A stretch of DNA of 38,264 bases from an uncultured bacterium (lineage in GTDB: Bacteria > Methylomirabilota > Methylomirabilia > Rokubacteriales > CSP1-6), in contig CAYRZF010000006.1 in NCBI GenBank assembly GCA_964428805.1, positions 1-38,264 on the forward strand, written 5' to 3'. Position 1 is the first letter of the stretch. The number at the start of each line of letters is the position of its first letter. The notes beneath the pieces were generated by a model. The model was not told where the DNA came from. It saw only the letters and a program-made list of their open reading frames with translations, and searched no databases. Both the position numbers and the translations under genes were made by a program. Below, one piece after another: positions 10,789 to 32,120 of this stretch.

Positions 10789-12359
10789 CGCAACATATTC
10801 TCTCGATCGTAACGTTTCTTCCTGTGCTGGCAGCGGTCGTCATCGCGCTCTTGCCCCGGGGGTGGGCCGCTCTCGTCCGGTGGCTGGCGTTCTTGGTGGC
10901 GACCGCCACCTTTGCCGTTTCCCTTCTTCTCTATTTCCGCTTCGACGCCCGGAATCCCGACTATCAGTTCGTCGAGCAGGTCCGGTGGATGCCGTCGTTC
11001 GGGATCTCCTACCACGTGGGAATCGATGGGATCAGCCTGCTCCTGGTGCTGCTGACGACGTTCCTCTCTGCGCTCGCTCTCCTTTCGTCCTGGCGGGCGG
11101 TGGACGTCCGGGTCAAAGAGTTCGCGGTGAGCATGCTGTTCCTGGAAACCGGGATGCTTGGGGTGTTCGTCAGCCTCGATCTCTTCCTCTTTTATATCTT
11201 CTGGGAGGCCATGCTGATCCCGATGTACCTCATCATCGGGGTCTGGGGCGGACCGGACCGGATCTACGCCGCGATCAAGTTCATCCTCTACACCCTGACC
11301 GGGTCGGTGCTCATGCTGGTGGCCATTCTCGCGCTCTACTTCCAGCACGGCGGCGTGGCGGGAAACTACACCTTCGACCTCCCGATCCTCGCGCGGTACG
11401 TTGTGCCGGCCGGGATCCAGGTCTGGCTTTTCCTGGCCTTCGCCGTGGCCTTCGCCATCAAGGTCCCGATGTTTCCCTTTCACACCTGGCTCCCCGACGC
11501 CCACGTGGAGGCGCCGACCGCGGGCAGCGTGATCCTGGCCGGCGTGCTGCTGAAGATGGGGACCTATGGCTTCCTCCGCTTTTGTCTGCCGCTCTTTCCG
11601 ACGGCGAGCCTGGCGTTCACCCCCTGGATCTTCCTCCTGGCCCTCGTCGGTATCATCTACGGCGCCTGGGTCTCCACGGTTCAGCCGGATTTGAAAAAGC
11701 TCGTGGCGTACTCAAGCGTGAGCCACCTGGGCTTTGTCGTCCTCGGTCTCTTCACGCTCACTCCCCAGGGGATCGTGGGTGGTATCATCCAGATGGTGAA
11801 CCACGGCCTCTCCACCGGGGCGTTGTTCGTCATGGTGGGAATCCTGTACGAGCGGCGGCACACTCGGCTCATCGCCGAGTTCGGCGGACTCTGGCGGGTA
11901 GTGCCCGCATTCTCGGCTCTCTTCATGATCGTTTCCCTTTCCTCGCTGGGCCTTCCCGGTCTCAACGGGTTCGTCGGCGAGTTCCTCATCCTGGTGGGCG
12001 CGTTCGCCTGGGCTTCCGGGCTGCCCGCGGCCGGCCCCCTCGCGTACCTGGTGCCGGTCCTGGCGACCACCGGGATCATCTTTGCGGCGATCTACATGCT
12101 CTGGATGTACCAGCGGGTGTGCTTCGGGGAGATCACGACCGACGCGAACCGGGGGCTCGTGGATCTCACGCCGCGGGAGTGGGCGGTGCTCCTGCCCCTC
12201 CTGCTCTTTATCGTCTGGATCGGCGTGTACCCGCGCCCCTTCACCGGCGTGACCGAGGCCACCGCCGAGGCGCTGATCGCCCAGGTGCAGTCCAAGGCCG
12301 CGGCGACCCACCTGCAGAGCGGGTACCCGGCGCGGGTAGCCGGTGAGGCGGCACGCTGA
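10785..12359 (+). CDS. nuoM: NADH-quinone oxidoreductase subunit M
   Basis: ATG overlaps nuoL stop; FWEAMLIPMY, KVPMFPFHTWLPDAHVEAP, LLKMGTYG, AYSSVSHLG. Confidence 0.95.
   Translation: MTQHILSIVTFLPVLAAVVIALLPRGWAALVRWLAFLVATATFAVSLLLYFRFDARNPDYQFVEQVRWMPSFGISYHVGIDGISLLLVLLTTFLSALALLSSWRAVDVRVKEFAVSMLFLETGMLGVFVSLDLFLFYIFWEAMLIPMYLIIGVWGGPDRIYAAIKFILYTLTGSVLMLVAILALYFQHGGVAGNYTFDLPILARYVVPAGIQVWLFLAFAVAFAIKVPMFPFHTWLPDAHVEAPTAGSVILAGVLLKMGTYGFLRFCLPLFPTASLAFTPWIFLLALVGIIYGAWVSTVQPDLKKLVAYSSVSHLGFVVLGLFTLTPQGIVGGIIQMVNHGLSTGALFVMVGILYERRHTRLIAEFGGLWRVVPAFSALFMIVSLSSLGLPGLNGFVGEFLILVGAFAWASGLPAAGPLAYLVPVLATTGIIFAAIYMLWMYQRVCFGEITTDANRGLVDLTPREWAVLLPLLLFIVWIGVYPRPFTGVTEATAEALIAQVQSKAAATHLQSGYPARVAGEAAR
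12306..12343 (+). repeat. Degenerate ACCC...GGGTACCCGG element (family 2) in nuoM 3' end
   Basis: ACCCACCTGCAGAGCGGGTACCCGG followed by CGCGGGTAGCCGG, paralleling the copy at 23190-23231. Confidence 0.45.
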
Positions 12360-13795
12360 TGGATGCCGCGTTTCTGCCCCTGGCTCCGCTCCTCGTCGTG
12401 ACGGGGACGGCGTTCCTCCTCATCCTGCTGGACCTACTGCCGCCTCGGGACAGCAAGGGGCACCTGGGCCTCGTGGCTCTGGTGGGGATCGTGGCCACGC
12501 TCCTCGTCGCGCTGTTCCTGTGGGGGCGGGCGGGCCGCGCGTTCAGCGGGATGGTCGTGCTGGACAACTTCGCCCTGTTCTTCGACGTGGTGATCTGCTA
12601 CGCCGCGGCGCTGGTCCTCCTCCTCTCCATGGACTACCTCCGGCGCAACGGGATGGAGACCGGCGAGTACTATATCCTGGTTCTCTTTTCGACGCTCGGG
12701 ATGCTCCTCATGGTCCATGCGTCGGATCTGATCGTGATCTTCCTGGCGCTGGAGCTGATGTCCCTGTCCCTCTACGTGCTCGCCGGCTTTTTCCGGTGGC
12801 GGCTGGCGGCCGGTGAATCCTCGATGAAGTACTTCCTCCTGGGTGCCTTCGCCACGGGCTTCTTCGTCTACGGGGTCGCGCTGATCTACGGCGCGACCGG
12901 CACCACGGCGTTGGACGGGATCGCCGTCGCTGCGGGATCCGCGCCGCGGGATCCGCTACTTCTCATCGGGCTCGGCCTGCTCCTGGTGGGCTTCGGCTTC
13001 AAGGTCTCGTCGGTCCCGTTCCATATGTGGGTCCCGGATGTGTACGAGGGCGCTCCCACGAGCGTGGCGGCGCTGATCGCCACGGGATCCAAAGCGGCGG
13101 GATTCGGAGCGCTCCTGCGCGTCCTCCTTTCGACGTTCAAGGTGGCCCAGCCGGACTGGACCGCGCTCTTGTGGGTTCTCGCGGTCCTGACCATGACGGT
13201 CGGGAACGTGGTTGCCATCGCCCAGTCAAACCTCAAGCGGATGCTGGCCTACTCCTCGGTCGCCCACGCGGGGTATATGCTGGTGGGGGTGGTCGCGGGG
13301 GGATCGCTCGGGGCCGGCGGTGTGCTCTTTTACCTCCTGGTCTACACGTTTACCACCGTGGGGGCCTTCGGGGTGATCCTGCTTCTCGAGCGGGAGCGCC
13401 GGGAGGCCGTGAACCTGGACGACTACGGAGGGTTGGCCGCCCATCATCCCGTGCTGGCGCTCACGCTTGCGCTCTTCCTCCTCTCGCTCATCGGGGTGCC
13501 GCCCACGGCGGGCTTTGCCGGCAAATTCTACCTCTTCGGCGCGGCAGTTCGATCGGGGTACATCTGGCTGGCGATCATCGCGGTTCTCAATTCGGTGGTG
13601 GCCGCCTATTACTATCTCCGCCTGATCGTCTACATGTACATGCGCGACCAGGAGGGCGCGCTCACCGAGCCGGCGCCGTCCTTCGCGGGCCGTCTGGCCC
13701 TGGGGATCGCGCTCTGGGGCGTCTTCCAGCTGGGACTCATGCCGGGTCCGGTGCTGGACCTCGCCCAGGCCGCCGTGGCACCGCTTCTGCGCTGA
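12359..13795 (+). CDS. nuoN: NADH-quinone oxidoreductase subunit N
   Basis: LELMSLSLYVL, KYFLLG, GFKVSSVPFHMWVPDVYEGAP, KRMLAYSSVAHAG, YYYLR. Confidence 0.95.
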   Translation: MDAAFLPLAPLLVVTGTAFLLILLDLLPPRDSKGHLGLVALVGIVATLLVALFLWGRAGRAFSGMVVLDNFALFFDVVICYAAALVLLLSMDYLRRNGMETGEYYILVLFSTLGMLLMVHASDLIVIFLALELMSLSLYVLAGFFRWRLAAGESSMKYFLLGAFATGFFVYGVALIYGATGTTALDGIAVAAGSAPRDPLLLIGLGLLLVGFGFKVSSVPFHMWVPDVYEGAPTSVAALIATGSKAAGFGALLRVLLSTFKVAQPDWTALLWVLAVLTMTVGNVVAIAQSNLKRMLAYSSVAHAGYMLVGVVAGGSLGAGGVLFYLLVYTFTTVGAFGVILLLERERREAVNLDDYGGLAAHHPVLALTLALFLLSLIGVPPTAGFAGKFYLFGAAVRSGYIWLAIIAVLNSVVAAYYYLRLIVYMYMRDQEGALTEPAPSFAGRLALGIALWGVFQLGLMPGPVLDLAQAAVAPLLR

Positions 13796-13801
13796 GGGAA
13801 T

Positions 13802-14584
13802 GTGGGAATCCGGCTTCATTACCGCGGTTGGCTCTTCGACCTCGATGGCACGGTGTATCGGGGGGAGAAGCTGATCCCGGGTGCGGCCGACGTCATTGCG
13901 GCACTCCGATCGGCCGGCAGCCGCGTCGCCTTCCTCTCCAACAAGCCTATCCAGACCCGAGCCGACTACGCGGACAAGCTGACTCGGCTGGGCATCCCCA
14001 CCACGGCTTCGGAGGTGGTCAATTCCTCGCTGGTCCTGGCCCGTCACCTGGCCCGCCTGGATCCCGGCGCCACTTGCTTCGTCATCGGTGAGCCCCCGCT
14101 GATCCGCGAGCTGGAGGCTCACGGCTTCAAGGTGAGGGAGGACCCGCTCGTCCGCTGGGTCGTCATAGCCTTCGACAGGACCTTCAGCTACGCCAAGCTC
14201 AACACGGCGCTGCAGGCAGTGAAGCGCGGGGCAAGGCTGATTGCCACGAACCCCGACCGGACCTGTCCCGTCACGGACGGCGAGATCCCCGACTGCGCCG
14301 GCATGATCGCCGCCGTCGAAGCAGTGACCGGCAAAGCCGTGGAGTTGATCGTGGGCAAACCGTCCCCCCTCATGCTCGAGGTGGCCCTGGAGGTCTTGGG
14401 CCTTTCGGCGGCGGAGACGGTGATCGTGGGCGACCGCATCGAGACGGACGTGACCATGGGGAAGGCCCTCGGGCTTGGCACTGTCCTGGTTCTCTCCGGC
14501 GTCACCGACCACGCCGACCCGCGCATCGCCGACCTCAAGCCCGATCACGTCCTCCGCTCGATTCGGGACCTCCTGATCCCATGA
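13802..14584 (+). CDS. HAD-IIA family hydrolase (NagD-like phosphatase)
   Basis: FDLDGT, IATNPD, VGKP, GDRIETD motifs. Confidence 0.9.
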   Translation: MGIRLHYRGWLFDLDGTVYRGEKLIPGAADVIAALRSAGSRVAFLSNKPIQTRADYADKLTRLGIPTTASEVVNSSLVLARHLARLDPGATCFVIGEPPLIRELEAHGFKVREDPLVRWVVIAFDRTFSYAKLNTALQAVKRGARLIATNPDRTCPVTDGEIPDCAGMIAAVEAVTGKAVELIVGKPSPLMLEVALEVLGLSAAETVIVGDRIETDVTMGKALGLGTVLVLSGVTDHADPRIADLKPDHVLRSIRDLLIP

Positions 14585-14724
14585 CCCGCCTAGTGCTCAC
14601 CTTCGCGCCCGCCGCCGCGCTTATTCGAGCGCGCACCCATGCCTCTGGCATGGGTGCCCGGCCCGCGCAACCCTCGGGGGGAGGTGTCGGAAGGGGGGCG
14701 AAGCCCCCCTCCGAGGATAGATGA
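14581..14724 (+). other. 47-aa bridging mini-ORF spanning an inserted repeat
   Basis: ATG14581 overlaps HAD TGA (ATGA); TGA14722-14724 overlaps glpD ATG14721 (ATGA); open throughout. Confidence 0.45.
14624..14719 (-). repeat. Double-hairpin dispersed repeat, family 1, copy 2, with nested family-2 hairpin (14633-14661)
   Basis: 39/40 identity to 2499-2538 on the opposite strand; in the second hairpin AAAGCC is replaced by a segment containing GCACCCATGCC-TCT-GGCATGGGTGC-CCGG. Confidence 0.85.
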
Positions 14725-16349
14725 GCCGACTGTCTGGCCTCGGGGAGCAACGGTTCGACGCCCTCGTGATCGGTGGTGGGATGGCCGGCGCGGGCGTGGC
14801 CCGGGATGTGGCCCTGCGTGGCGTCTCCGTGGTCCTCTTCGAGAAGGGCGACTTTGCCTCGGGGACCACGGGGCGTTCCTCCAAGCTCATCCACGGCGGG
14901 CTCCGGTATCTCGAGCTCTTCGACTTCGGGCTGGTGCGGGAGTCGCTCAGGGAACGGGAGACCCTCGGCCGGCTGGCCCCGCACCTGATCCGCCCGCTTC
15001 CCTTTCTGATCCCGATCTACCGCGGCTCGCGCCTCGGCCTCATCAAGGTCCGGATCGGTCTCACGCTCTACGATTGGCTCACGCCGGGGAAGACCACCGA
15101 CCGCTATCGCGTGATCCCGCCCGAGGCCGCGCTGGCGCTGGAGTCCGAAATCCGGGCCGAAGACCTCAAAGGGGCGGGGTTCTACTTCGACGACCTCCTG
15201 CTCTCTCCCGAGCGCCTGTGCCTGGAAAACGTTCTGTCCGCCTGCCGTCACGGGGCCCGAGCGTTCAACTATGTTGAGGTCGAGGAAGTCCTGACCGGCC
15301 CGAACGGAATCGAGGGGCTGCGCGTTCGGGACCTCCTGACCGATCAGGTCCACGCCGTGCGGGGGCGGGTTATCGTCAACGCGGCCGGCCCCTGGGTGGA
15401 TCGAATCCGCGGGCTCGCCGGTATCTCGGACCGGGGGCCGCAGGTCATCAGGACCACGAAGGGAATCCACTGTCTTCTGCCGCGGCTGACCGAGCACGCC
15501 GTGTACCTGGGGACGAAAGACGAGCGCATGGTCTTCGTGATCCCCTGGAGAGAGTTCTCCCTCGTGGGGACCACGGACACGGACTTCGCCGGCGATCCGG
15601 ATCGTCTGTGGGCCACGCGGGACGAAGTGACTTACCTGCTGGGGGAGGTGCGGCGGGTGCTTCCCGATCCCCGGCTGGCGGCGGCCAACGTGATGTACAC
15701 CTATGCGGGGGTCCGACCGCTAACCCACGAGGCGGGGAAGTCCCCATCCAGGGTCTCCCGCCAGCACCGAGTGTGGGCTGAGGGTCCCCAGGGGAGGTTC
15801 CTTACGATTACGGGGACGAAGTTGACCTGTTTCCGGAGCCTGGCCGAGACGGTGGCCGACCTCGTGATGGCCCGGCTGGGTCGCCGGGCGCGCTCGCGCA
15901 CAGCCGGTCTCACCCTGGACGGCGCCGACGAGAGGGTCCGTCGGCCTGTGGAGGTGCGGGCGTGGATGGACGTCTCAGACGAGATGGCGGCGACGGGGCT
16001 CCCACGCGAGACCCTGGAGAGGCTCGTCGAGACCTACGGGCGCAACTACGTGCGTGTGCTCGACCTTGCCCGAAAGCTCCCCGACGGCGACGCCCGGCTC
16101 TGTCCCCGAAACCCTGAGATCGTTGCGCAGCTGCATTATGCGGTCGCAGAGGAGCTCACGGTCTCGCTCGGAGACTTCCTGCTTCGTCGCACCGGCATCG
16201 GAACCAGCTCCTGCCAGGGACTCGACTGCGCCGAACGCATCACGTCCCGGATGGGAGACCTGATGGGGTGGAACTCCCGGCGGCGGGAGGCGGAACTGGC
16301 GGCGTATCACGACACTGTTGCGCGAAGCCGTCGGTTTCGGGATAGTTGA
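14721..16349 (+). CDS. glpD: FAD-dependent glycerol-3-phosphate dehydrogenase/oxidase
   Basis: IGGGMAGAG, DFASGTTGRSSKLIHGGLRYLE, NAAGPW, VGTTDT, YAGVRPL, DFLLRRT. Confidence 0.9.
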   Translation: MSRLSGLGEQRFDALVIGGGMAGAGVARDVALRGVSVVLFEKGDFASGTTGRSSKLIHGGLRYLELFDFGLVRESLRERETLGRLAPHLIRPLPFLIPIYRGSRLGLIKVRIGLTLYDWLTPGKTTDRYRVIPPEAALALESEIRAEDLKGAGFYFDDLLLSPERLCLENVLSACRHGARAFNYVEVEEVLTGPNGIEGLRVRDLLTDQVHAVRGRVIVNAAGPWVDRIRGLAGISDRGPQVIRTTKGIHCLLPRLTEHAVYLGTKDERMVFVIPWREFSLVGTTDTDFAGDPDRLWATRDEVTYLLGEVRRVLPDPRLAAANVMYTYAGVRPLTHEAGKSPSRVSRQHRVWAEGPQGRFLTITGTKLTCFRSLAETVADLVMARLGRRARSRTAGLTLDGADERVRRPVEVRAWMDVSDEMAATGLPRETLERLVETYGRNYVRVLDLARKLPDGDARLCPRNPEIVAQLHYAVAEELTVSLGDFLLRRTGIGTSSCQGLDCAERITSRMGDLMGWNSRRREAELAAYHDTVARSRRFRDS

Positions 16350-17161
16350 GGCGCCCTGGGTCGAGGATGCCAATGTCTGCCTTCGGTGCCCCCGGCGTCG
16401 CCCAATCAGGCCGGACCAGCCTGGCGGCTCACCGGGGTGGGGCGCTGCTCTGGCCCGAGAACAGCCTGCTGGCCTTCCGGAACGCCATCGCCCTCGGAGC
16501 CGACTTCCTGGAGTTCGATGTTCACCTCAGCAGGGAGGGAGAAGTGGTGGTGATCCACGATGCGACACTCCCGCGGACCACCACGGGGGTGGGCGCAGTG
16601 CAGGACCTGATGCTCGCCGAGCTCCGGGCGCTCTCCCTCAAGGACAAGGACGGGAAAGTCACGGAGGAGGTACTGCCGAGCCTGGAAGAGGTGGTGGCGC
16701 TCGCCGCGGCGACCCCGGTTGGGCTCCTCCTCGAGATAAAGGTGGATGCGCGCCGCGCGCGGTACCCGGGCATCGAGGAGAAGGTGTTTGCGATTCTCGA
16801 CCGGCACGGAGTGACCATGCGCGCCATCGTCATGTCGTTCGATCCCGAAACGGTTCGTCACGTCCGCCAGCTTCGTCCGGAAGTTCGAGCGGGCGCGCTC
16901 TACTCTCCCCGAACCCTGAGGCAGACGCGCTCGAGCGTCGGATCGGCGATCAACGAGCTGTGGAAATACGGAGGCCGCTTCGTGGGCCTCCAGCAATCGC
17001 TCGTGACTGCTGAGAGTCTGAAACTGGCGAGGGGGAAGGGCCTCCTCCTGGGGGCGTGGACCGTCAACGAGGCGGAGCCCATGCGCCGATTCATCGAGCT
17101 GGGGGTGGGGGTCCTGATCACGGATCGGCCGGACCTGGCCAAAGAGCTGCTCACAGGGTAG
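16346..17161 (+). CDS. Glycerophosphodiester phosphodiesterase (GlpQ/UgpQ family)
   Basis: AHRGG..PENSL.AF, EFDVH, VVIHD, EIK, WTVN, ITDRP; start uncertain (TTG16346 or ATG16367/16373). Confidence 0.9.
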   Translation: MRRPGSRMPMSAFGAPGVAQSGRTSLAAHRGGALLWPENSLLAFRNAIALGADFLEFDVHLSREGEVVVIHDATLPRTTTGVGAVQDLMLAELRALSLKDKDGKVTEEVLPSLEEVVALAAATPVGLLLEIKVDARRARYPGIEEKVFAILDRHGVTMRAIVMSFDPETVRHVRQLRPEVRAGALYSPRTLRQTRSSVGSAINELWKYGGRFVGLQQSLVTAESLKLARGKGLLLGAWTVNEAEPMRRFIELGVGVLITDRPDLAKELLTG

Positions 17162-17257
17162 CGGGGACGCGCATGGGGGGGATGTTCGGCTAGTTTGTGC
17201 GAGACTGACAGTCGGGAGGGCCGAAGAATCCCTTTAGGATTAATGAGTTTCCGCCAC

Positions 17258-17286
17258 TTGTCTTTGGTGGTGAGGTGTGATAGTTT
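17258..17286 (+). promoter_or_regulatory. sigma70-type promoter of atpZIBE
   Basis: TTGTCT-17 nt-TAGTTT with extended TGn; ATG17297 only 10 nt downstream. Confidence 0.5.
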
Positions 17287-17296
17287 TCCTGTTCAC

Positions 17297-17524
17297 ATGG
17301 TAGAGCCGTCCCCCTGGCGGGGCCTCGGCGTTGTGGGCAGTGCCGGGATCACCTTGGTAGTGGCGACGGCTGGCGGGGCCGTTCTTGGATATTTCCTGGA
17401 CCGTTGGCTTGGAAGCTCGCCGTGGCTTACCCTGATCGGGCTCGGCCTCGGAATTGTCGTGGGGTTCAGAGAGCTCATTCGAACGATCAAGGCCGCGGAG
17501 CGTGAGGAGCGGAATGGACCGTGA
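17297..17524 (+). CDS. atpZ: AtpZ/AtpI family ATP synthase accessory protein
   Basis: GYFLDRWLGSSPW..GL.LG motif, two TM, first gene of the Fo cluster. Confidence 0.85.
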   Translation: MVEPSPWRGLGVVGSAGITLVVATAGGAVLGYFLDRWLGSSPWLTLIGLGLGIVVGFRELIRTIKAAEREERNGP

Positions 17525-17882
17525 CCTGGTAGGGCGCGTGACGGGCGCTGGCGCGCTGGCGCTCATCCCGATCGCGGGAGCCGCCTTCTATCTCGCCGAC
17601 GTTCCAGGGCTCCTCGGCGTGCTCGCGGGAGGTGGTCTGGCGCTCGGGAACTTCGGCTGGTTGAGCACGGGGAGCCGACGAGCGCTCGCGCTCTTCAGCG
17701 CCCGACGCGTTCATCCGCTGTGGCTCCTGAGTCTCGGGCTTCGGCACCTGGTCCTGTTCGCGGCGCTCGGGATTCTCCTCTGGAGCGGGCACGTCCACCC
17801 TCTGGGGGTGCTCGTCGGCCTCTCGGTGCTCCCGCCGGTCCTCATCGCCCAGGGGCTTCGCGCGGTCGCGCGAAATCCGTAA
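17514..17882 (+). CDS. atpI: ATP synthase protein I
   Basis: Four hydrophobic segments, G..LALGNF.WL, position before atpB, GAGGAG SD. Confidence 0.75.
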   Translation: MDRDLVGRVTGAGALALIPIAGAAFYLADVPGLLGVLAGGGLALGNFGWLSTGSRRALALFSARRVHPLWLLSLGLRHLVLFAALGILLWSGHVHPLGVLVGLSVLPPVLIAQGLRAVARNP

Positions 17883-17886
17883 GCCG

Positions 17887-23022: not shown

Positions 23023-24155
23023 AGGCCTATCGCGAGGCTTCCGGCATACCGCTCCACCTGCTTCTGGCATCCTTGGTCGCCGGGGGGTGCGGCTGGCTGT
23101 CCACGGAGAAGCCCGTTCCCGCCGGGCCCATCTCGGAGGCCGTCCGCGAGGCCCAGGCGAAGGCGCAGGCCGCCGAGGCGCCCGCCCACGTACCCACGCC
23201 TCCGGCGGGGGTACCCGGCGCGGGTACCCGGAACGCAGCGCCGGTTGGCCACGCGGATGCTCTCGACGTCGTGGACCGCGTGATCGCCGTGGTCAACAAC
23301 GACGCGATCACTCTGAGCGAGCTGCAGGATGGGCTGGCCTACTACCTGTACGAGTCCAAGCAAACGGTGAAGCCCGAGCAGGAGGCGGAGCTCAAACAGC
23401 GGCTGCTGAGCCGGCTGATCGAGAGTCGGCTTCAGCTCCAGGAGGCCAGCCGGGAGCAGGTCAGCGTGGAGGACGCGGAGCTCAACGAGCAATTGGCCGA
23501 CCTGATGAAGCGGTTCGACGCCAAGACCCAGGACGAGTTCGAGACGCTACTCAAGGCCCAGGGGCTGACGCTGGCCGGGATCAAGAAACGGCTCCGGGAA
23601 CAGGTGATGATTCAAAGGGTGATCCAGCGGAAGGTCCAATTTCGGGTGTCGGTGACTGAGGAGGAGATCGAGGGGTATTTGCTCGAGAACCGGGAAAAGC
23701 TGGAAACCGGGCTCCCCTATCGTGCCCGACACATTCTCATCACGCCAACCCCCCCGGGGGACGAGGCGGCGTGGGAAGCCGCCGGGGCCCGGGCCGAGGA
23801 GGTTTGGGCCAGGGTTCGTGCGGGCGAGGATTTCGGGGAGCTCGCCGCGCGCCATTCCCAGGATCCGACGGCGAAGGAGGGGGGCGACCTCGGGGAGTTG
23901 AAGCAGGGAGAACTGGCCACCGACCTCGAGGGCCAGATCCTCCGGTTACGGGCGGGGGAAGCGTCCGCCCCATACCGCTCCAGGTTGGGCGTTCATATCT
24001 TCAAGCTCGAGTGGAGGGAGAGCCTCTCCGGCGAGGCCTTGGCGCAGGCCAAGCGACAGATTCGGGAGATCCTCTTTCGGCAGAAGTATGCCGCCCGTCT
24101 GTCGGCTTGGCTCGAGGAGATTAAGAAGCGCGCGATCATTGACGTTCGCCTGTGA
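23019..24155 (+). CDS. SurA/PrsA-like peptidyl-prolyl isomerase, predicted lipoprotein
   Basis: ATG overlaps mfd stop; hydrophobic signal ending VAGGC; VDRVIAVVNNDAIT SurA N-domain; ARHILI, GEDFGELA..HS.D, GGDLG rotamase. Confidence 0.85.
   Translation: MKAYREASGIPLHLLLASLVAGGCGWLSTEKPVPAGPISEAVREAQAKAQAAEAPAHVPTPPAGVPGAGTRNAAPVGHADALDVVDRVIAVVNNDAITLSELQDGLAYYLYESKQTVKPEQEAELKQRLLSRLIESRLQLQEASREQVSVEDAELNEQLADLMKRFDAKTQDEFETLLKAQGLTLAGIKKRLREQVMIQRVIQRKVQFRVSVTEEEIEGYLLENREKLETGLPYRARHILITPTPPGDEAAWEAAGARAEEVWARVRAGEDFGELAARHSQDPTAKEGGDLGELKQGELATDLEGQILRLRAGEASAPYRSRLGVHIFKLEWRESLSGEALAQAKRQIREILFRQKYAARLSAWLEEIKKRAIIDVRL
23190..23231 (+). repeat. Family-2 hairpin element inside the SurA linker
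   Basis: GTACCCACGCC-TCC-GGCGGGGGTAC-CCGG then CGCGGGTACCCGG. Confidence 0.7.
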
Positions 24156-24350
24156 GAAAAAAGTTGACAAGCTTCTCGGGCCTGAGCGAAAATATGCTCG
24201 GAACATTCGAAGTGCCTCGCGAACAGATCAGAACCCTCCGGTGGGGAGAATCTCGCTGAGCAGTTCTTGAACGAGTCTCACAGGGGGCTTCTGGAAGGCC
24301 GAACTAGGTTTCCCCCCGCCGTTCGGCGGGATCCCAACGAGGAGCATTCG

Positions 24351-24440
24351 ATGATCGCCCGCCCTAACGGAGTTGACGCAAGTACACGCGGCAGGCATTT
24401 CCCGCTAGTCTCAGCGAGGCTTCTAGGCCAGGAGGCATGA
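24351..24440 (+). other. Candidate 29-aa rho leader peptide (uORF)
   Basis: GAGGAG 6 nt before ATG24351; [29 protein letters not shown]; the stop lies between the rho SD and rho start. Confidence 0.35.
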
Positions 24441-24442
24441 GG

Positions 24443-25696
<1,254 letters not shown>

Positions 25697-25733
25697 CCGG
25701 GCGGCCCGGTCCCGTTATACCCCCCCCAATTCC

Positions 25734-25762
25734 TTGCTTTTTTCCCACCTCACTGGTATGCT
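25734..25762 (+). promoter_or_regulatory. sigma70-type promoter of rpmE
   Basis: TTGCTT-17 nt-TATGCT with extended TG; SD GAGGAGG downstream. Confidence 0.6.
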
Positions 25763-25786
25763 GTGATCTTTACGAGGAGGTGCGCC

Positions 25787-26002
25787 GTGAAGGCAGGCAT
25801 TCATCCTGAGTACGTCGAGACTACGATCACCTGCGCCTGTGGGGAGGTCATCCACACCCGTTCCACCCGTCCCCAGATCCGGGTGGAGGTGTGCTCCAAG
25901 TGCCACCCCTTCTTTACCGGGAAGCAAAAGCTGGTGGACACGGCCGGCCGGATCGAGCGCTTCCAGCGGAAGTACAAGAGGCAAACCGGTACAGAGGGGT
26001 AA
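25787..26002 (+). CDS. rpmE: 50S ribosomal protein L31 (Zn-binding type)
   Basis: [28 protein letters not shown]; GTG start after AGGAGG. Confidence 0.95.
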
Positions 26003-26142
26003 GGTCCGGTCCGGCGGCTCGCGGCTTGCCGGGTCGGGGAGGGTGTCGGTCCTGGACATCCGTCCCTCGGCGTCTCTCGAAAACGAAAGCTCCCCTCCCG
26101 CCTTTCGCGTTCCCCGCCCGCGATTCCTCATGAGGGTCCAGC

Positions 26143-27213
26143 GTGTTTGACAGGTTGCGCCAGATCGAGGAGCGATATCAGGAACTCTCCCGCCTGCTCG
26201 CCGACCCGCAGGTGATCGGGCAGCCTGCGGAGTACGCCCGCCACGCCAAGGCCGCGAGCGACTTGAGCCTCGTCGTCGAGCGCTTCGACGAGTACAAGGC
26301 GGTGCTTGCGCGGATCAGCGAAGCGCGTCACATCCTGGCTGAGGAGGGCGATCGGGAGCTCCGGGAACTCGCCCAGTCAGAGCTGGTGGAGCTCAGCGCG
26401 CGGCAGGCCGCCCTGGAGGAGGAGCTCCGGCGGCTCCTGACGCCCCGGGACCCCAACGACGACCGGAACGTCTTCGTCGAGGTCCGGGCTGGCGCCGGAG
26501 GCGACGAGGCGGGGCTGTTCGCCGCCGACCTGGCCCGCATGTACGTGAAATACGCCGAGCGCCAGGGATGGAAGGTGGAAACCGTCGATCGCCACCCCAC
26601 CGGCGTGGGCGGGTTCAAAGAGGTGATCCTGTTCCTCCAGGGGAAGGGCGCCTGGAGCCGCCTCAAGTTCGAGCGGGGGGTCCACCGCGTTCAGCGCGTG
26701 CCGGTCACCGAGTCAGCGGGCCGCATCCACACCTCGACGGTGACCGTGGCGGTTCTGCCCGAAGCCGAGGACGTGGAGGTCAAGGTCAGCGAGCAGGACC
26801 TCCGGGTGGACGTGTACCGGTCCTCCGGGCCCGGCGGGCAGGGGGTGAACACGACGGACTCGGCGGTGAGGATCACCCACATCCCCACCGGGCTCGTGGT
26901 GACCTGCCAGGATGAGCGTTCCCAGATCAAGAACCGGGCCAAGGCGCTGCGGGTACTCAAGGCTCGACTGCTCGAGCGCGCCCAGGAAGACCAGCGTGCC
27001 CAGATCGCCGCGGATCGGCGCAGTCAGGTGGGAACCGGGGAGCGGAGCGAGAGAATCCGCACCTACAATTTCCCGCAGGGGCGGGTCACCGATCATCGGA
27101 TCAGCCTCACCCTCCACAAGCTGCCCGTGGTGCTGGCGGGTGAGCTGGACGAGCTGATCGATGCGCTCGTGGCGTCGGACCAGGCCGAACGCATGGCGCA
27201 GACGCCAACGTGA
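26143..27213 (+). CDS. prfA: Peptide chain release factor 1
   Basis: PVT (PxT) anticodon-mimic motif, [20 protein letters not shown]. Confidence 0.97.
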
Positions 27214-28127
27214 TGATGCTTGCCGTGGCACCAACCGTCGGTGGCTTGCTGGCCGAGAGCGCCACCGCGCTCGAGGGCGCGGGCCTGCCTATGGCCCGCC
27301 AGGACGCTGAGTGGCTGCTAGCGGATGCGGTGGGGATCGAGCGGTTTCGGCTCTACTTGGATCCCGACCGCACCGTCTCGGCGGAGACCGCCAAAGACTT
27401 CAGAAGCCGGATCGAGCGCCGAACGGTGCATGAGCCTCTCCAATACATTCTCGGATTCGAGGAATTCCGGGGGCATCGCCTCCAAACGGCGCCCGTCGCG
27501 TTGATCCCACGCCCCGAGACCGAACTGCTCGTCGAGTGGGCTCTGGAGTTGGAACGGCAGGACGGTCCCTGGAGCGTCGCTGTGGACGTCGGCACCGGGA
27601 CCGGGGCGATTGCCTGCGCCCTTGCCGCGGCCGTCCCGGGTCTCCGGATCGTGGCGATCGAGCGCTCGAAGGGAGCATTGGCCCTTGCTGCCGTGAATGT
27701 CGGGACCCTCGGGCTCGGCCAGCAGGTTCGGCTGGTCCCGGGCGATCTCCTCGAACCGCTGGCCGGCCTTACTACGGCGGTTGACCTGGTGATCTCCAAC
27801 CCTCCGTACGTCCCGACCGGTGAACTTCCCGGCTTGCCCATCGAGGTTCGCGATTGGGAACCGCGCGAGGCGCTGGACGGCGGACCGGACGGGATGGATG
27901 TCCATCGGCGTCTCATCGCTCGGTCCCCGCGGTTTCTGAAGCCCGGGGGGTGGCTGCTGATGGAGATGGGAGAACGTCAGGCCGAACCGCTCAGGCAGTG
28001 CCTGGCGGCAAGTGGGTTTGAGAGGATCGAGGTGCGCAAGGATTTACGGGGCGTCGAGCGGATGATCGGCGGGCGGGTACCGGGTACCCACGCTCGAAGC
28101 GTGGGTACGGAGGCTTGGGTGCGCTGA
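27210..28127 (+). CDS. prmC: Release factor glutamine methyltransferase
   Basis: [27 protein letters not shown]; follows prfA. Confidence 0.93.
28080..28108 (-). repeat. Family-2 hairpin element in prmC 3' end
   Basis: Minus strand GTACCCACGCT-TCG-AGCGTGGGTAC-CCGG, perfect 11-bp stem. Confidence 0.75.
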
Positions 28128-29383
28128 TGGCGGCCGGTCTCGAGATCGAGGGGGGAGTTCGGCTCAGCGGCACGGTGCCTTCCAGCCCCGCCAAGAATGC
28201 CGCGCTCCCGGCCCTGGCGGCCTCGCTGCTGACGGCGGAGCCGGTCGTGCTGGAAAACCTCCCTGCGCTGGCCGACGTCACTACCATCAGCGAGCTGCTC
28301 GCGCGGCTGGGGGCCGAATTCTCCGAGGAGCCGGGAGGGGGAACGCGGGTCCAGGTGCCCCGGGTGAAGAGCCACGAGGCCCCCTACGAGCTGGTCTCCA
28401 CCATGCGCGCCTCGGTGCTCGTTCTGGGGCCGCTGCTGGCGCGGACGGGACTGGCCCGCGTCGCCCTTCCCGGCGGCTGCGCCATAGGGCTTCGACCCAT
28501 TGACCAGCACCTCAAGGGGCTCAAGCGCCTCGGCGCCGACATCGGGATCGAGAACGGGTTCGTGGAGGCGCGCGCGAGCCGGCTCAAGGGCTGCCGAATC
28601 ACCCTGGACCTGGTCACGGTGACGGGCACCGAAAACCTGATGATGGCCGCGGTCCTCGCGGAAGGAACCACGGTGATCGAGAACGCCGCCCGGGAGCCGG
28701 AGGTCGTGGACCTCGCCGGTCTGCTTCAGGCCATGGGGGCCACGATCGAGGGGGCGGGAACCGAGCGGATCGAGATCCGGGGAGTTTCCGAGCTCGGTGG
28801 CTGCCGACACCGGATCATCCCGGATCGAATCGAGACGGGAACCCTGCTCGTGGCCGGCGCCATCACGGCGGGAGAGGTGACCGTCACGAACACGGCGCCC
28901 AGGCACCTCTCAGCTCTGCTCGCCAAACTCGAGGAGGCGGGGGCGCTTGTCGAGATGGGGGAGGACTGGATCCGCTGCCAGGGCCCCGAGCGGCCGCGCC
29001 CGACCGACGTGATCACCAGTCCCTTTCCCGGCTTCGCTACCGACATGCAGGCGCAGATGATGACCCTGCTCGGGCTGGCCGACGGCCTGTCGCGCATCAC
29101 CGAGACGATCTTTGAGAACCGATTTATGCATGCGGCGGAACTGAACCGGATGGGGGCCCGGATCGAAACCGACGGGGCCACGGCCCTCGTCCGGGGTGTC
29201 GAGCATTACCAGGGGGCCCCCGTGATGGCGACGGATCTCCGCGCGTCCGCCTCGCTGGTCCTGGCGGGTCTGGCGGCGCGGGGGAGGACCGAGGTCTCGC
29301 GCGTCTATCACCTGGACCGCGGATACGAGCGGTTGGAAGCGAAGCTCCAGGGACTCGGCGCGCGGATCCGGCGAATTCCATGA
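28127..29383 (+). CDS. murA: UDP-N-acetylglucosamine 1-carboxyvinyltransferase
   Basis: AKNAALP, MRAS, PGGCAIG.RP (catalytic Cys), AREPE, PDRIE, TDLRA, LDRGY. Confidence 0.97.
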
Positions 29384-30021
29384 ACAAGCAGCTCACGCTG
29401 GCCCTGCCCAAAGGCCGGTTGCTCGCCCCGGCCCTCAAGATGCTGCGGAGCATGGGGCTGGACGGGGTGGAGGCTGACTCGCGGAAGCTGATCTTCGCGG
29501 ACGAGCGCCGCGGGCTCCGGTTCTTGATTCTGAAGCCTGCCGATATCCCGACCTATGTGGAGTACGGGGCCGCAGACCTGGGGATCGTGGGCAAGGACAT
29601 CCTCCTCGAGCAGGAGCCCGACGTTTACGAACCGCTCGACCTCGGCTTCGGCTTCTGCCGGCTCGTCGTGGCCGAGCCCAGGGCGCTCTGGGAGCGGGAC
29701 GATCCGTCCAAGTGGTCGTGGGTACGGGTCGCGACCAAGTATCCGACCCTGACCGAGCGCTACTTCTCCGAGCGGGGGATCCAGGTGGAGATGATCCGGC
29801 TGGACGGCTCCATCGAGCTGGCGCCGCTGGTGGGTCTCGCTGACCGGATCGTGGACCTCGTCCAGTCCGGCGAAACCCTGCGCGCCAACGGCCTCGTGGA
29901 GGTCGCCGAGATCGCGCGTTCCACTGCGCGCCTGATCGTGAACCGCGCGTCCCTCAAGACCGAGTACTCCCCGGTGAGCCACCTCATCGAACAGATGAAA
30001 AAGCAGGTGACGCGCCCGTGA
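29380..30021 (+). CDS. hisG: ATP phosphoribosyltransferase, short form
   Basis: [32 protein letters not shown]; 213 aa, no regulatory domain. Confidence 0.95.
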
Positions 30022-31331
30022 TATGCCTGAGGCTGGACACTCATGCGCTAGGGGTCCCCGGGGTAGTGAAGGCCCTGGAACGGTCCCCTGCGGGGGTGGA
30101 TCCCGAGATCCATGGCCAGGTGGAGGCAATCCTCTCCGGCGTCAAGGAGCGAGGGGATGCCGCTCTTGTCGAGTTCACCGAGCGGTTCGACGGGGTGCGA
30201 CTCACCCCGCAGGAGCTTCCCGTCGACGCCGGCGAGTACGAGGCCGCCGAGCGGGCGGTCGGCCGAGCCACGCTGCGCGCGCTGAGATATGCCGCCGATC
30301 GGATCGAGGCCTTTCACCGCCACACACTGCCCCGTTCCTGGTGGGTCGAGGATGCCAACGCCTCCCTGCTGGGGCAGCAGGTTCGCCCGCTGGAGCGCGT
30401 CGGTATCTACGTGCCCGGCGGCCGTGCAGCCTACCCCTCGACGGTCTTGATGACGGCCGTCCCGGCGCGCGTGGCGGGAGTATCGGAGGTCGTCCTCGTC
30501 TCGCCGCCGGCATCGGACAAATCGTTGAACGCGGCGGTTCTCGCGGCGGCGCGGGTCGCCGGAGTCACGGAGGCCTACAAGGTCGGGGGGGCTCAGGCCA
30601 TCGCGGCCCTGGCCTACGGGACGGCAACCATCCGCCGGGTTGACAAGATCGTCGGCCCCGGCAACATCTACGTCGCCCTCGCCAAGAGCAAAGTGTTCGG
30701 CCAGGTCGGAATCGACATGCTTGCTGGACCGAGCGAAGTGGTGGTGGTGGCCGACGAGAGTGCAGATCCGGAGTGGGTCGCCGCCGATCTCCTGGCCCAA
30801 GCCGAGCACGACCCGATGGCGCGCGCGGTGCTCCTGACGGCGGATGCCGGGCTCATCGAACGCGTGGCCGGGGCGCTGGAGCGAAGGCTGGCCGGGCTCG
30901 CGCGCAGCACGATTGCCCGGAAGTCGCTCGAGAACAATGGGGCGCTGGTGCTGACCCGGGACCTGGCCGAGGCCGTCGCGATCGCGAATAGGCTGGCCCC
31001 TGAGCATCTCGAGCTCCAGGTCGGCGACCCGTTTTCGCTGCTTCCCGCCGTCCGCCACGCAGGGGCGATCTTCCTCGGCCGGCAGACCCCCGAAGTGATC
31101 GGCGACTACGTGGCGGGACCGAATCACGTGCTGCCCACCGGGGGCACCGCCCGATTTTCCTCGGCCCTCGGCGTCGAGGATTTTATCAAGCGCTCAAACC
31201 TCATCCACTACTCTCAGAAGGGGCTCAGCGAGGCCTGGCCGCACGTCGAAGAGCTCACCCGAGTCGAAGGACTCCAGGCTCACGGCGTCGCCGCGGAGGT
31301 CCGTCTCCCCAAGCGAGGGCAACCATCATGA
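30018..31331 (+). CDS. hisD: Histidinol dehydrogenase
   Basis: YVPGG, GGAQAIAALAYG, GPGN, AGPSE, QAEHD, APEHL, GDY.AGPNH.LPT. Confidence 0.97.
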   Translation: MICLRLDTHALGVPGVVKALERSPAGVDPEIHGQVEAILSGVKERGDAALVEFTERFDGVRLTPQELPVDAGEYEAAERAVGRATLRALRYAADRIEAFHRHTLPRSWWVEDANASLLGQQVRPLERVGIYVPGGRAAYPSTVLMTAVPARVAGVSEVVLVSPPASDKSLNAAVLAAARVAGVTEAYKVGGAQAIAALAYGTATIRRVDKIVGPGNIYVALAKSKVFGQVGIDMLAGPSEVVVVADESADPEWVAADLLAQAEHDPMARAVLLTADAGLIERVAGALERRLAGLARSTIARKSLENNGALVLTRDLAEAVAIANRLAPEHLELQVGDPFSLLPAVRHAGAIFLGRQTPEVIGDYVAGPNHVLPTGGTARFSSALGVEDFIKRSNLIHYSQKGLSEAWPHVEELTRVEGLQAHGVAAEVRLPKRGQPS

Positions 31332-31972
31332 GCCGAATCACGCGAGAGGGACGGCCGGATGTTCCGCGGGCACCCGAACCCCTTCGGGCTCGGGTCGCGC
31401 GCATCGAGCGCAAGACCCGGGAGACCGAGGTGCTGCTCCAGCTCAACCTGGACGGCAACGGCGCCTCCAAGGTCGAGACCACGATCCCGTTCTTGAACCA
31501 CATGCTGGAGGCGTGGGCGAAGCACGGCCTGATGGACCTCACGGTGGACGCGCGGGGCGACACCGAGGTGGACCTGCATCACACGGTGGAGGATGTCGGC
31601 ATTTGCCTGGGCAAAGCGTTCAAGGAGGCGATCGGAGACAAGAAGGGGATCGTTCGCTACGGGGCCGCCTCCGTCCCGATGGACGAGGCCCTGGTTTCCT
31701 CGACCCTGGATATCTCGGGGCGTCCCTTCCTGGTATTCAACGTCCCGCTGATGCGGACCCGGGTGGCGAACTTCGACCTGGACCTCCTCAAGGACTTCTT
31801 CCGGGCGTTCGCCTTCAACGGGGACGTGACGCTCCACGTCAACCTCCACTACGGCGAGAATCTCCACCACATCTCCGAAGCGGTCTTCAAAGCCGTGGGG
31901 CGGGCCCTGGCCGAGGCCACGCGCCTCAACCCCCGGATCGAAGGCGTCCTTTCGACAAAAGGCGACCTGTAA
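31328..31972 (+). CDS. hisB: Imidazoleglycerol-phosphate dehydratase
   Basis: RKTRET, FLNHML, DLHHTVED, PMDEAL, NLHH..EA.FK, STKG; extended N-terminus. Confidence 0.95.
   Translation: MSRITREGRPDVPRAPEPLRARVARIERKTRETEVLLQLNLDGNGASKVETTIPFLNHMLEAWAKHGLMDLTVDARGDTEVDLHHTVEDVGICLGKAFKEAIGDKKGIVRYGAASVPMDEALVSSTLDISGRPFLVFNVPLMRTRVANFDLDLLKDFFRAFAFNGDVTLHVNLHYGENLHHISEAVFKAVGRALAEATRLNPRIEGVLSTKGDL
31367..31395 (-). repeat. Family-2-like hairpin in the hisB N-terminal extension
   Basis: Minus strand ACCCGAGCCC-GAAG-GGGTTCGGGT-GCCCG. Confidence 0.5.
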
Positions 31973-31973
31973 T

Positions 31974-32118
31974 GCCGGGCCAAGTGGCGAGTCAGACAAG
32001 GCCCGAGGGAGGAGCCGGCCGGAGGCGTAGCGACCCAGCCCGCCTGCGGCGGGACTGGGTGCCCGTAAAGGAATGGCGACGACCGAGAACGAAGTATGAC
32101 GAAGTCAGTTGGGCCGGC
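31974..32118. repeat. MITE/REPIN-like intergenic element between hisB and hisH with nested family-2 hairpin (32033-32065)
   Basis: Imperfect terminal inverted repeats GCCGGGCCAAGTGGC / GTCAGTTGGGCCGGC (12/15); central ACCCAG-CCCGCC-TGC-GGCGGG-A-CTGGGT-GCCCG. Confidence 0.55.
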
Positions 32119-32120
32119 AG

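Follow-up and report, generated by a model that had tools for sequence, protein, structure and literature searches.

A probable REP-like hairpin module in core genes and larger palindromic repeats of an uncultured Rokubacteriales bacterium

Introduction

Short palindromic repeats have been described in several bacterial groups. Rickettsia palindromic elements (RPEs), about 100-150 nt long, are in-frame palindromic repeats within genes that add peptides at tolerated places, and to our knowledge they are restricted to Rickettsia. In heterocyst-forming cyanobacteria, the SDRs attributed to Elhai et al. 2008 are reportedly 21-27 nt long, share a hairpin with compensatory changes, and are said to lie within minitransposons and nested in copies of themselves. 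The families SDR1-8 reportedly insert into HIP1 or heptamer repeats. The exact insertion site of SDR5 lies within the octamer palindrome HIP1 (PMC4390886). The REP/REPIN repeats of the GTAG superfamily are described as short, GC-rich, imperfect palindromes present in tens to hundreds of copies, mainly extragenic, with a conserved stem base and a variable tip, G.T wobbles and occasional in-gene copies at termini or linkers, some GTAG families having variable-length self-complementary "loops" (PMC3733652). CGTC-tagged REPs (Di Nocera et al. 2013) are characterized by the CGTC tag, by A/T in stem pairs 1 and 2, by a loop of 4-5 nt and by a CCA tail, with no dedicated transposase identifiable, and the same source places RPE-1 within a tRNA pseudouridine synthase gene (PMC3733652). 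REP-like palindromes have thus been reported inside genes before (PMC3733652), which qualifies the earlier proposal of an undescribed family at the locus studied here.

The window analyzed is a stretch of 38,264 nt (contig CAYRZF010000006.1, positions 1 to 38,264), for which an original prediction had proposed a selfish family of covarying hairpins; its observation is confirmed here and its interpretation partly supported. The hairpin shares with REP/REPIN sequences all the traits listed above for the GTAG superfamily, from the GC-rich imperfect palindrome to the in-gene copies at termini and linkers, and its 25-nt core falls within the 20-40 nt expected of a REP. In contrast to GTAG REPs, it has no unpaired GTAG (or GYRG-like) tag, its conserved flank being C-G ahead of GGGTACCC, no RAYT accompanies it either here or in G095, which has the most copies, it sits at the apex of other palindromes instead of forming inverted doublets, and its sequence is common to several phyla. 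As for the CGTC REPs, no dedicated transposase gene was found for this palindromic family, whereas its tag is CCG/GGG, its loop has 3 nt and it has no CCA tail, which sets it apart from those repeats. It resembles the SDRs, by their description, in size, hairpin and self-nesting, and in that the element begins with an octamer palindrome, GGGTACCC; unlike the SDRs, which are reportedly limited to one cyanobacterial subgroup, it spans phyla. Like the RPEs it can occur in frame within genes, where it adds peptide at tolerated places, but at 25-33 nt it is shorter than they are, and it lies mostly between genes and within other repeats. With the subterminal hairpins of IS200/IS605 it has in common a strand-specific single-strand hairpin beside a short conserved flank, but the genome has neither TnpA (Y1) nor TnpB and there is no element body between paired ends. 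No GTAG-type guide, the counterpart of the tetranucleotide in the predicted analogy with REP and IS200/IS605 ends, is found at the hairpin. For a comparison with MITEs, the assembly offers no DDE_3 or IS110 gene as a candidate full-length IS.

Results

Features of the window

14631..14660, minus strand (canonical strand): hairpin copy with a perfect 11-bp stem, filling the first hairpin site (HP1) of the type A composite repeat; intergenic.
14593..14720, plus strand: composite repeat of type A, flanked by genes for a HAD hydrolase and a GlpD-like protein and ending 4 nt short of the ATG.
31973..32110, plus strand: composite repeat of type D in the hisB-hisH interval; it carries a hairpin of the sister family at 32033-32060.
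12304..12343, minus strand: degenerate copy with a duplicated arm, in the C-terminal tail of NuoM.
23189..23231, minus strand: hairpin copy with the left arm tandemly duplicated, in the SurA linker from the lipobox to the SurA_N domain; translated as HVPTPPAGVPGAGTR.
28075..28121, plus strand: hairpin within a hairpin in the C-terminal tail of PrmC; outer arms 28075-28081 and 28109-28121, complete inner hairpin 28082-28108.
31335..31397, plus strand: about 57 nt inserted in frame behind the third codon of hisB; the nearest relative (G011) lacks them.

Consensus, covariation and folding strand

On the folding strand the family consensus is (C)CG-GGTACCC-(inner stem, N5)-(3-nt loop)-(inner stem, N5)-GGGTG-nG, with a loop that is mostly R-N-A. 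The module spans about 25-33 nt around a core of 25 nt; the stem base and the flank 5' of it have a conserved sequence, whereas the inner 3-8 bp and the loop are variable and the arms nevertheless complementary. All three hairpins with an 11-bp stem and a 3-nt loop were located where they had been predicted, those at 14633-14657 and 28084-28108 being perfect and that at 23190-23214 having one A/G mismatch. The 26 regular copies of this genome comprise 18 distinct sequences, in which pair 2-24 occurs as T.G, T-A or C-G, pair 8-18 as four Watson-Crick types and pair 11-15 as three, in agreement with the compensatory changes proposed at stem positions 2, 8 and 11. Paired cells reach 94.9% versus 89.8% after column shuffling, and the observed value is attained in 0 of 1000 shuffles.

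The one-sided CCGG foot is also real and corresponds to the conserved 5' flank of whichever strand bears the G.T wobbles. In copies from other genomes this flank has C at -2 (98/107) and G at -1 (102/107), followed by GGTACCC; the GTAC of the consensus lies partly within the stem. The wobbles are strongly biased, G.T outnumbering A.C by 22 to 1 in this genome and by 65 to 5 in other genomes, and their near confinement to one strand indicates that one particular single strand, of DNA or RNA, folds. Moreover, the canonical strand is the better folder at 3/3 window sites, for example -30.4 kcal/mol on the minus strand versus -24.4 on the plus strand for the 14633 copy. Within the window the orientation of the hairpin tracks neither gene direction nor the strand given by GC skew; the strand that folds is the antisense one in surA and nuoM but the sense one in prmC. 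The octamer GGGTACCC alone has 58 sites versus about 90 by a rough composition estimate and is thus not over-represented; no precise insertion point within it was seen.

Three further sites, at 12306, 31367 and 32033, had been proposed as variants ending in GGGTRCCCG. The last two are instead members of a sister sub-family, GGGCACCC...GGGTCG, whose inner stems are longer, the 32033 site being placed there by sequence reading and fold, as it is absent from the broad-pattern scan list. The 12306 site is a degenerate relic, identical to the surA copy at 22/23 nt and without a significant fold (z -0.3 and +0.6).

No match to the window was obtained in Rfam at the gathering score, and a search by E-value with 10 foreign hairpin loci gave microRNA matches at chance level only. 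Full-text literature searches with hairpin strings of 10-12 nt retrieved only primers in unrelated papers, and none of the literature matches listed was a paper on REP- or MITE-type repeats in Rokubacteria or Methylomirabilis.

Copy number in the genome

A degenerate pattern has three matches in the window, exactly the three 11-bp hairpins, with 0.00 expected from 100 dinucleotide shuffles. In the 2.44-Mb genome there are about 30 strict and about 45 broad copies; the broad pattern matches 46 times, versus 1 in the reversed control. A separate count gives 15 sites in the genome versus 0 with the reversed pattern and only 3 sites across 30 relatives. The motif excess therefore held against the controls (0.00 in window shuffles, 0-1 with the reversed pattern), and the family is a real one. 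When coding state is assigned by Pfam on chosen ORFs, 23 of the 30 strict copies lie within other, intergenic repeats, 4 in verified coding sequences, and 3 are unclear.

Carrier repeats

The hairpin nearly always caps a different, larger palindromic repeat, and many unrelated longer palindromes bear the module at the tip, both in this genome and in other phyla. Bursts of copy number are apparently due to these carrier repeats (types A, B and D), which are about 80-130 nt long with the hairpin at the tip. Their locations differ among related genomes. For example, in a comparison with G011 over about 29 kb of synteny, the type A repeat at 14593-14720, which shows a possible 10-nt duplication (ATGAsCCGmC), is missing at the corresponding place, where the two genes overlap at ATGA; similarly, G011 has no repeat between hisB and hisH, and a type D copy sits elsewhere in that genome. 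In filled relative to basal carrier repeats the tip is replaced, which differs from a simple insertion, and at the hairpin copies no clean insertion junction or target duplication was noticed. A rule of +21 nt (filled minus basal, at both type A sites and at prmC) was dropped, because the filled type A copies may each trace back to a single event and the length of the basal tips ranges between 9 and 11 nt.

Copies inside genes

The predicted placements were correct: four in coding sequence (NuoM, SurA, PrmC and HisB) and two nested, with the 14633 copy intergenic. Comparison with orthologues supports an in-frame copy in each of these four proteins. Further coding copies are found in the E2 linker and the SurE tail. 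The in-gene modules occupy a tail or a linker, in frame, and their residues are missing from orthologues; copies are also nested in larger repeats, as had been proposed, and even within each other. The expected empty sites were found in nuoM, prmC and hisB orthologues, as indels that fall exactly at the hairpins, all of them in frame. Part of the NuoM tail (BLAST gap 12310-12353) is absent from G011, the window nuoM being 44-48 nt longer. The hisB insertion holds the sister-family hairpin GGGCACCC-GAACCC-CTTC-GGGCTC-GGGTCG at 31368-31397. For PrmC, 11 of 18 other orthologue tails end 3-4 residues or fewer past the conserved motif; CSP1-6 has one hairpin in the tail, while the tail of the window and that of G011 hold the nested pair and are 21 nt longer. 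The prmC stop codon (28125-28127) overlaps the murA ATG.

The coding copies are old and also present in sister genera. In a strain check, contigs from four other studies were aligned over 12200-32150; no contig skips a hairpin, that is, no empty allele was found, and the surA, prmC and hisB sites have 0 gaps in the spanning pieces listed. There is thus no sign of recent movement.

Search for a mobilizing enzyme

The prediction of a RAYT/TnpA(Y1) gene flanked by the hairpins was not borne out. Y1/RAYT (PF01797) has 0 matches in this genome, whose assembly is 98% complete by marker genes and may miss a gene, and 0 in G035, G095, G088 and G081, that is, in 4 of the 10 other copy-bearing genomes examined. 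The other six have Y1_Tnp genes; the hairpin is absent from the flanks of all 10 Y1 loci fetched from other genomes. Also, PF00078 (RVT_1), PF07282 (TnpB), PF01548 (IS110) and PF13358 (DDE_3, IS630) have 0 matches in the assembly. In G139, G031 and G095, the genes enclosed by hairpins that lie close together or in inverted pairs are ordinary; an IS630-type transposase about 320 nt from a hairpin and a small HNH gene nearby were judged coincidental.

Distribution across genomes

In a sample of 201 genomes of the phylum, 24 carry the hairpin, and the counts per genome include 107 (G095), 15, 13 and 10. In genus g12, each of four species has 1-2 copies. Five genomes have 8-44 copies each, with controls of 0, and at least three of them are titled as other phyla. 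At least 110 loci lie in records titled Rokubacteria, NC10, Armatimonadia, Syntrophorhabdales, Omnitrophota, Gemmatimonadota and others. An identical 25-mer is found in unrelated phyla. One foreign genome has at least four different kinds of outer stem around the hairpin, and the junction bases of this genome and G095 are not alike. This survey of sequences supports a patchy, lineage-specific, cross-phylum distribution, as would be expected of mobile DNA. No match was found in 2.9 million viral contigs, so that no vector of cross-phylum transfer is in sight.

Discussion

We lean toward regarding each site as a copy of a non-autonomous, REP-like palindrome, about 25-33 nt long, that has neither GTAG tag nor RAYT. 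In this view, a protein acting in trans would recognize the conserved base of the stem and set the module into single-stranded or hairpin-tip DNA, and most amplification would proceed via the larger carrier repeats that acquired it. The coding copies would be rare survivors in tolerant places, with the frame and the stop/start junction preserved, and after fixation the pairing may be held either because the nucleic acid is under selection or because repair restores the palindrome. Against this reading count the absence of a mobilizing gene from the assembly, tips that are replaced where a clean insertion junction might be expected, strain contigs in which no empty allele appeared, an orientation that tracks no strand within the window, and the lack of viral matches. 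The selfish, mobile character that had been proposed is in keeping with the patchy spread across phyla, but is not supported by the coding copies, which are old and show no length difference in the strain contigs listed.

These copies are the ground for an explanation that we consider unlikely although it deserves attention, in which the hairpin is a functional host motif, an RNA or ssDNA structure that a conserved protein binds or cleaves, such as a stabilizer of mRNA 3' ends or a site of processing at the junction of coupled genes. Selection would maintain it, and its copies would arise by recombination between repeats and not by transposition. Base pairing persists at orthologous coding sites of different genera; the surA linker shows compensating changes, and three genomes retain hairpin relics at the E2 linker. 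The nested prmC hairpin is conserved far above its surroundings, and copies are located at the translationally coupled junctions prmC/murA and nuoM/nuoN. Pairing kept across genera, together with the lack of length differences in the listed contigs of four other studies that span sites such as that of prmC, makes a host-level role possible; for coding copies fixed in place with compensating changes, a host function fits as well as a selfish element. G.U pairs in REP stems have been taken elsewhere as a sign of RNA function (PMC3733652). However, the exact pattern is missing in 177 of the 201 phylum genomes and in most orthologues of the same genes, which implies that the hairpin is dispensable, and a folding strand that is antisense at surA and nuoM but sense at prmC argues against a single mRNA role.

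It is more improbable still that the module is a classical REP moved by a RAYT (a Y1 HUH transposase) whose gene is unassembled or lost. The strand-specific hairpin, the conserved one-sided flank and the mostly extragenic location would agree with it, as would the Y1_Tnp genes of six copy-bearing genomes and the known loss of REPtrons in some strains (PMC3733652); against it stand a conserved flank of CCG/GGG and not GTAG, the five genomes without PF01797, this one included, and the absence of the hairpin from 10/10 fetched Y1 loci. Finally, GC-rich palindromes produced by chance or by local template switching, with no common origin, could be suspected in a genome of 66% G+C that holds several other hairpin repeat families, and left-arm duplications at surA, nuoM, prmC and C4:44624 resemble slippage. 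Nonetheless, every shuffle and reversed-pattern control is at or near zero and the same 25-mer is present in unrelated phyla, which refutes this idea and leaves it hardly any probability.

A further extension of the non-autonomous REP-like module is tentative. It would be among the smallest known mobile DNA modules, of about 27-33 nt, non-coding, without RAYT and phylum-crossing. It would preferentially settle on hairpin tips already present, including those of its own copies, by way of a host or other protein that recognizes nothing but the base of the stem. From there it would ride the carrier repeat that it caps and occasionally add 7-19 residues to essential proteins.

Such hairpins disrupt metagenome assemblies and misguide the annotation of gene ends. 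If the module is mobile, PrmC, NuoM, HisB, SurA, E2 and SurE would provide dated, orthologue-controlled examples of repeats that extend core enzymes by peptide segments. If the hairpin is a host signal, it would represent an unnamed and widely conserved nucleic-acid motif. If the module moves on its own, it would lower the size limit of mobile DNA and imply a hairpin-tip insertion activity common to distant soil and groundwater phyla.

A family of covarying hairpins

The hairpins form a genuine repeat family with secure statistics. It was searched in the assembly whose contig C6 is the window; this totals 2.44 Mb over 216 contigs, has a G+C content of 66% and is 98% complete as judged by marker genes. 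Three hairpins lie at the sites, and with the sequences, given by the original prediction, one stem carrying a single mismatch. A broad scan, requiring GGGYACCC, an inner stem of 3-8 complementary bp, a loop of 3-5 nt and GGGT(A/C/G)(C/G), has five window sites among its matches.

Hairpin copies in the window
14633-14657: perfect hairpin GCACCCATGCC-TCT-GGCATGGGTGC, read from sequence
23190-23214: hairpin GTACCCACGCC-TCC-GGCGGGGGTAC with one mismatch, read from sequence
28084-28108: perfect hairpin GTACCCACGCT-CGA-AGCGTGGGTAC, read from sequence
12304 (minus), 14633 (minus), 23190 (minus), 28082 (plus), 31368 (plus): broad-scan matches
32033 (minus): hairpin of the same architecture with a bulged 12-bp stem, from sequence and fold

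The copies at 31368 and 32033 form a sister sub-family, GGGCACCC...GGGTCG. A degenerate pattern allowing at most one mismatch hit the three hairpins read from sequence and nothing else in the window; 100 shuffles that preserved dinucleotides averaged 0.00 hits. Across the genome, the pattern RCCCRYGCCNNNGGCRYGGGT gives 15 sites and none when read backwards; among 30 relatives (~125 Mb), it gives two in the nearest relative (G011), one in G022 and none in the remaining 28. The broad scan yields 46 matches (45 loci) versus 1 in the reversed genome, and a profile trained on 110 copies from other genomes yields 55 matches that merge into 30 loci.

Pairing holds in 94.9% of stem cells over 26 regular copies (18 distinct sequences) versus 89.8% when the 3' partners are shuffled within columns, the observed value being reached by 0 of 1000 shuffles. 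The stem positions for which compensatory changes had been predicted do show several pair types, at 2-24 (T.G, T-A, C-G), 8-18 (C-G, T-A, G-C, A-T) and 11-15 (C-G, T-A, G-C), and pair 7-19 is either G.T or A-T. Wobbles on one strand number 22 G.T versus 1 A.C in this genome and 65 versus 5 in copies from other genomes; because the G.T wobbles fall nearly all on one strand, this is taken as the folding (canonical) strand, with the consensus (C)CG-GGTACCC-RCGCC-RNA-GGCGT-GGGTG-nG. The canonical strand folds better than the other at all three window sites (-30.4/-24.4, -31.5/-24.3 and -29.3/-25.2 kcal/mol). The predicted "CCGG foot" corresponds to its conserved 5' flank, position -2 being C in 98 and -1 being G in 102 of 107 non-identical copies from foreign genomes, with G at +2 in 80 of them. 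Within one GC-skew regime of the window, three folding strands are minus and one plus, and orientation relative to genes is mixed.

With the outer arms only (GGTACCC-N13-GGGTS), five genomes gave 19, 62, 68, 113 and 26 matches, the summed reversed-pattern controls giving 2, 0, 1, 0 and 7. Judged by eye and without a formal count, at least six inner stems with exact complements occur among the matches listed (CGCC/GGCG, CTCC/GGAG, CTGC/GCAG, CACC/GGTG, TTCC/GGAA and TGCC/GGCA).

Occurrence in other genomes

With each prokaryotic species represented by a single genome, a scan returned at least 110 hairpin loci, the titles among those listed including Candidatus Rokubacteria/Rokuibacteriota, NC10/Methylomirabilis, Armatimonadia, Syntrophorhabdales, Omnitrophota, Zipacnadia, Gemmatimonadota, Thermoanaerobaculia and others. 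Five of these genomes hold 26, 30, 8, 44 and 26 copies at up to one mismatch, each reversed control giving 0. Of the 201 genomes sampled from the phylum to which the window belongs, 24 contain the exact pattern (controls all 0): 107 in G095, 15 in G149 (whose coordinates are identical to those of G035), 13 in the own genome, 10 in G171, 5 in each of two, 4 in one and 1-2 in the other 17. A search of 2.9 million viral contigs gave no match, and no Rfam family matched the hairpin.

Carrier repeats capped by the hairpin

The predicted nesting is largely borne out. Other repeat families of the genome contain 23 of the 30 strict loci: 16 are in type A (~80 nt), 5 in type B and 2 in an element related to these. 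Type A in its basal form, ttcgagcgcGGGCtttGCCCgcgcaaNcctggggggaggNatcggaaggggGGCgaaGCCcccctccgag, has ~34 matches. The module takes the place of the tip in one or the other of the two small hairpins of type A, its orientation being opposite in the two; the first tip is basal in ~24 copies and module in 9, and the second is module in ~10. Between basal and filled tips, 6-7 nt are replaced by ~27 nt with no clean insertion. In foreign genomes the module sits on quite different palindromes, those of an Armatimonadia record including cccctctccc/gagagggg, gggcgc/gcgccc, cccccttcc/ggaaggggg and ggccgaatgggg/ccccatccggcc. In the regions of G095 examined, a type A subfamily carries the module at the second tip, its junction bases being gggggccc-...-gtccccc versus ggggc-...-gcccc in the own genome. 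The copy-number bursts thus seem due to the carriers, which would seem to have acquired the module more than once.

Examples of repeats
Type A: window 14593-14720; C13:16487, C41:15969 and C65:12110 on other contigs of the genome
CCCTCTCCC-type hairpins: C1:22352, C1:23327, C3:61018, C10:5383 and C14:5038 of the same genome

The second family has the form CCCTCTCCC(C/T)-loop-(A/G)GGGAGAGGG; sequence resembling tgagggtg often comes after it. Similar palindromes bear the GGTACCC hairpin at the tip in Armatimonadia and Zipacnadia records. At C4:44622-44690, the left arms GGGTACCCGCGCG, GGGTACCCCCGCC and GGGTACCCGCGCG stand in tandem ahead of a single loop and a stack of right-arm fragments. The left arm is likewise duplicated at surA, nuoM and prmC, a pattern suggestive of slippage or of self-insertion that recurred.

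Type A ends in ...cccccctccGAGG, with an ATG following within ~20 nt in at least 18 of ~34 matches (counted by eye). Alternative pairings could form between a G-rich segment, GGGGGGAGG, and a C-rich one, CCCCCCTCC. Type A may be a translational switch, or a 5'-UTR/ribosome-binding module that is mobile.

Carrier positions in the window and G011

About 29 kb of the window align with two G011 contigs at roughly 80% identity, the large differences being repeats.

Differences from G011
14593-14720: type A repeat, window only; in G011 both genes overlap at ATGA
31973-32110: type D repeat, window only at this locus; the G011 copy lies between other genes
nuoM tail: segment in the window, absent from G011
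hisB: segment in the window, absent from G011
G011 only: three type A elements, one between prfA and prmC

A possible 10-nt duplication accompanies the type A repeat at 14593-14720. The different loci of type D in the window and G011 are direct evidence that this repeat has moved.

By BLAST, type D (~138 nt) has 23 matches elsewhere in the genome, spread over no fewer than 11 further contigs, and its window copy is 88.6% identical over 114 nt to G011 C29:2056-2299. A reversed partial type A at window 2499-2568 is 97.5% identical over 40 nt to 14676-14715 and also matches G011 C29:5008-5077. Window 34534-34658 includes ~90 nt absent from G011, with a further long palindrome, ggccgtcggggcgcctacgcgcccgacggtcggcc.

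Copies within genes and their age

The claim that PrmC, NuoM, HisB and SurA carry copies was largely right, and the expected empty sites appear as length differences in prmC, nuoM and hisB; for surA none was found among the relatives compared. PrmC (27210-28127) was compared with 20 other sequences. Eleven of 18 tails end no more than 3-4 residues beyond a conserved motif, ...R(V/F/Y)(L/V/I)xx, these short tails mostly having TGATG onto murA, and 7 of 18 are longer and unrelated (6 of 17 without the one from the unpublished G008). The tail of Rokubacteria CSP1-6 (L061) holds a single canonical hairpin read as RVPAPEAWVR*, and those of the window and G011 hold a complete second hairpin within the left arm of the first (+21 nt), reading as 17 protein letters. 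The relative G010 (L157) lengthens the same tail differently, by a coding tandem repeat (GAAGGAGGQRR)n.

In NuoM, an identity confirmed by Pfam, the tail in the window exceeds that of G011 by 16 residues and that of G010 by 9, the additional DNA being a degenerate copy with 22 of 23 nt common to the surA copy. HisB begins MSRQARIERK in G011 and MSR-ITREGRPDVPRAPEPLRARV-ARIERK in the window; in both, the ATG overlaps the hisD stop without a later in-frame start, so translation includes the insert. The SurA copy lies between lipobox and SurA_N domain, in a linker variable in all relatives, and at the same place G011 has a different perfect hairpin, CCCCAGCC-TTC-GGCTGGGG, with one fully compensated pair relative to the window. 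Further copies occur in 2-oxoacid dehydrogenase E2, in the linker that joins the E3-binding domain to the catalytic domain (shortened relics occupy the same place in G011 and G035), and in SurE, 17 codons upstream of the stop; three more loci, possible further cases, lie near gene starts.

Four other studies, one of a cave, one of groundwater and two of soils, supplied contigs that diverge by up to roughly 3% as estimated from the listed differences. These cross the sites in surA, prmC and hisB without a gap, and none skips a hairpin. The coding copies are thus fixed, and those of prmC, surA and E2 predate the G011 split, the E2 copy also predating the G035 split.

Elsewhere in the window, G+C falls to 0.516 at 6001-8000, and at 24854-25519 the depth summed over contigs is more than ten times higher in each of the four runs, probably reflecting a highly conserved gene common to many organisms.

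Proposed mobilisation and relation to known repeats

The original prediction looked to a hairpin-flanked RAYT/TnpA(Y1) gene. In the own assembly, no Y1_Tnp, RVT_1, TnpB Zn-ribbon, IS110 or DDE_3 domain was found, a result that at 98% completeness falls short of proof of absence. Y1_Tnp occurs in 6 of 10 other hairpin-bearing genomes and was not found in G035, G095, G088 and G081, which also bear hairpins; the Y1 loci fetched from hairpin-bearing genomes carry no hairpin. In G095, one type A repeat capped by the hairpin is followed ~390 nt downstream by a stand-alone HNH endonuclease gene (L223:2948-3265, 105 residues), a single case and probably a coincidence. We propose that the single-stranded hairpin would be recognised in trans via a sequence-specific base and the module put at hairpin tips. 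Amplification would run mainly through carrier repeats, and genic copies would be retained only where the frame is kept, in tolerant segments.

The closest analogue in behaviour is the cyanobacterial SDR elements, which Elhai in 2008 reportedly described as 21-27 nt, nested and hairpin-forming. Rickettsia RPEs share the in-frame habit and are four to five times the length of the hairpin module. SDR insertion in the HIP1 octamer has been described (PMC4390886). According to Di Nocera et al. (PMC3733652), prokaryotic REPs split into GTAG- and CGTC-tagged superfamilies, the CGTC class lacking a transposase, and show G.U pairing, self-complementary variable tips and intragenic copies at termini and linkers. 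The hairpin family has neither tag, nor was a RAYT found in its own assembly. No published description of the hairpin was found, supplements and subscription journals lying outside the search. The family may be selfish, functional or both. It is best filed as a variant, so far undescribed, of REP-like palindromic repeats, among which it is unusual in having no visible transposase, in its identity across phyla and in its position at the apex of other repeats.
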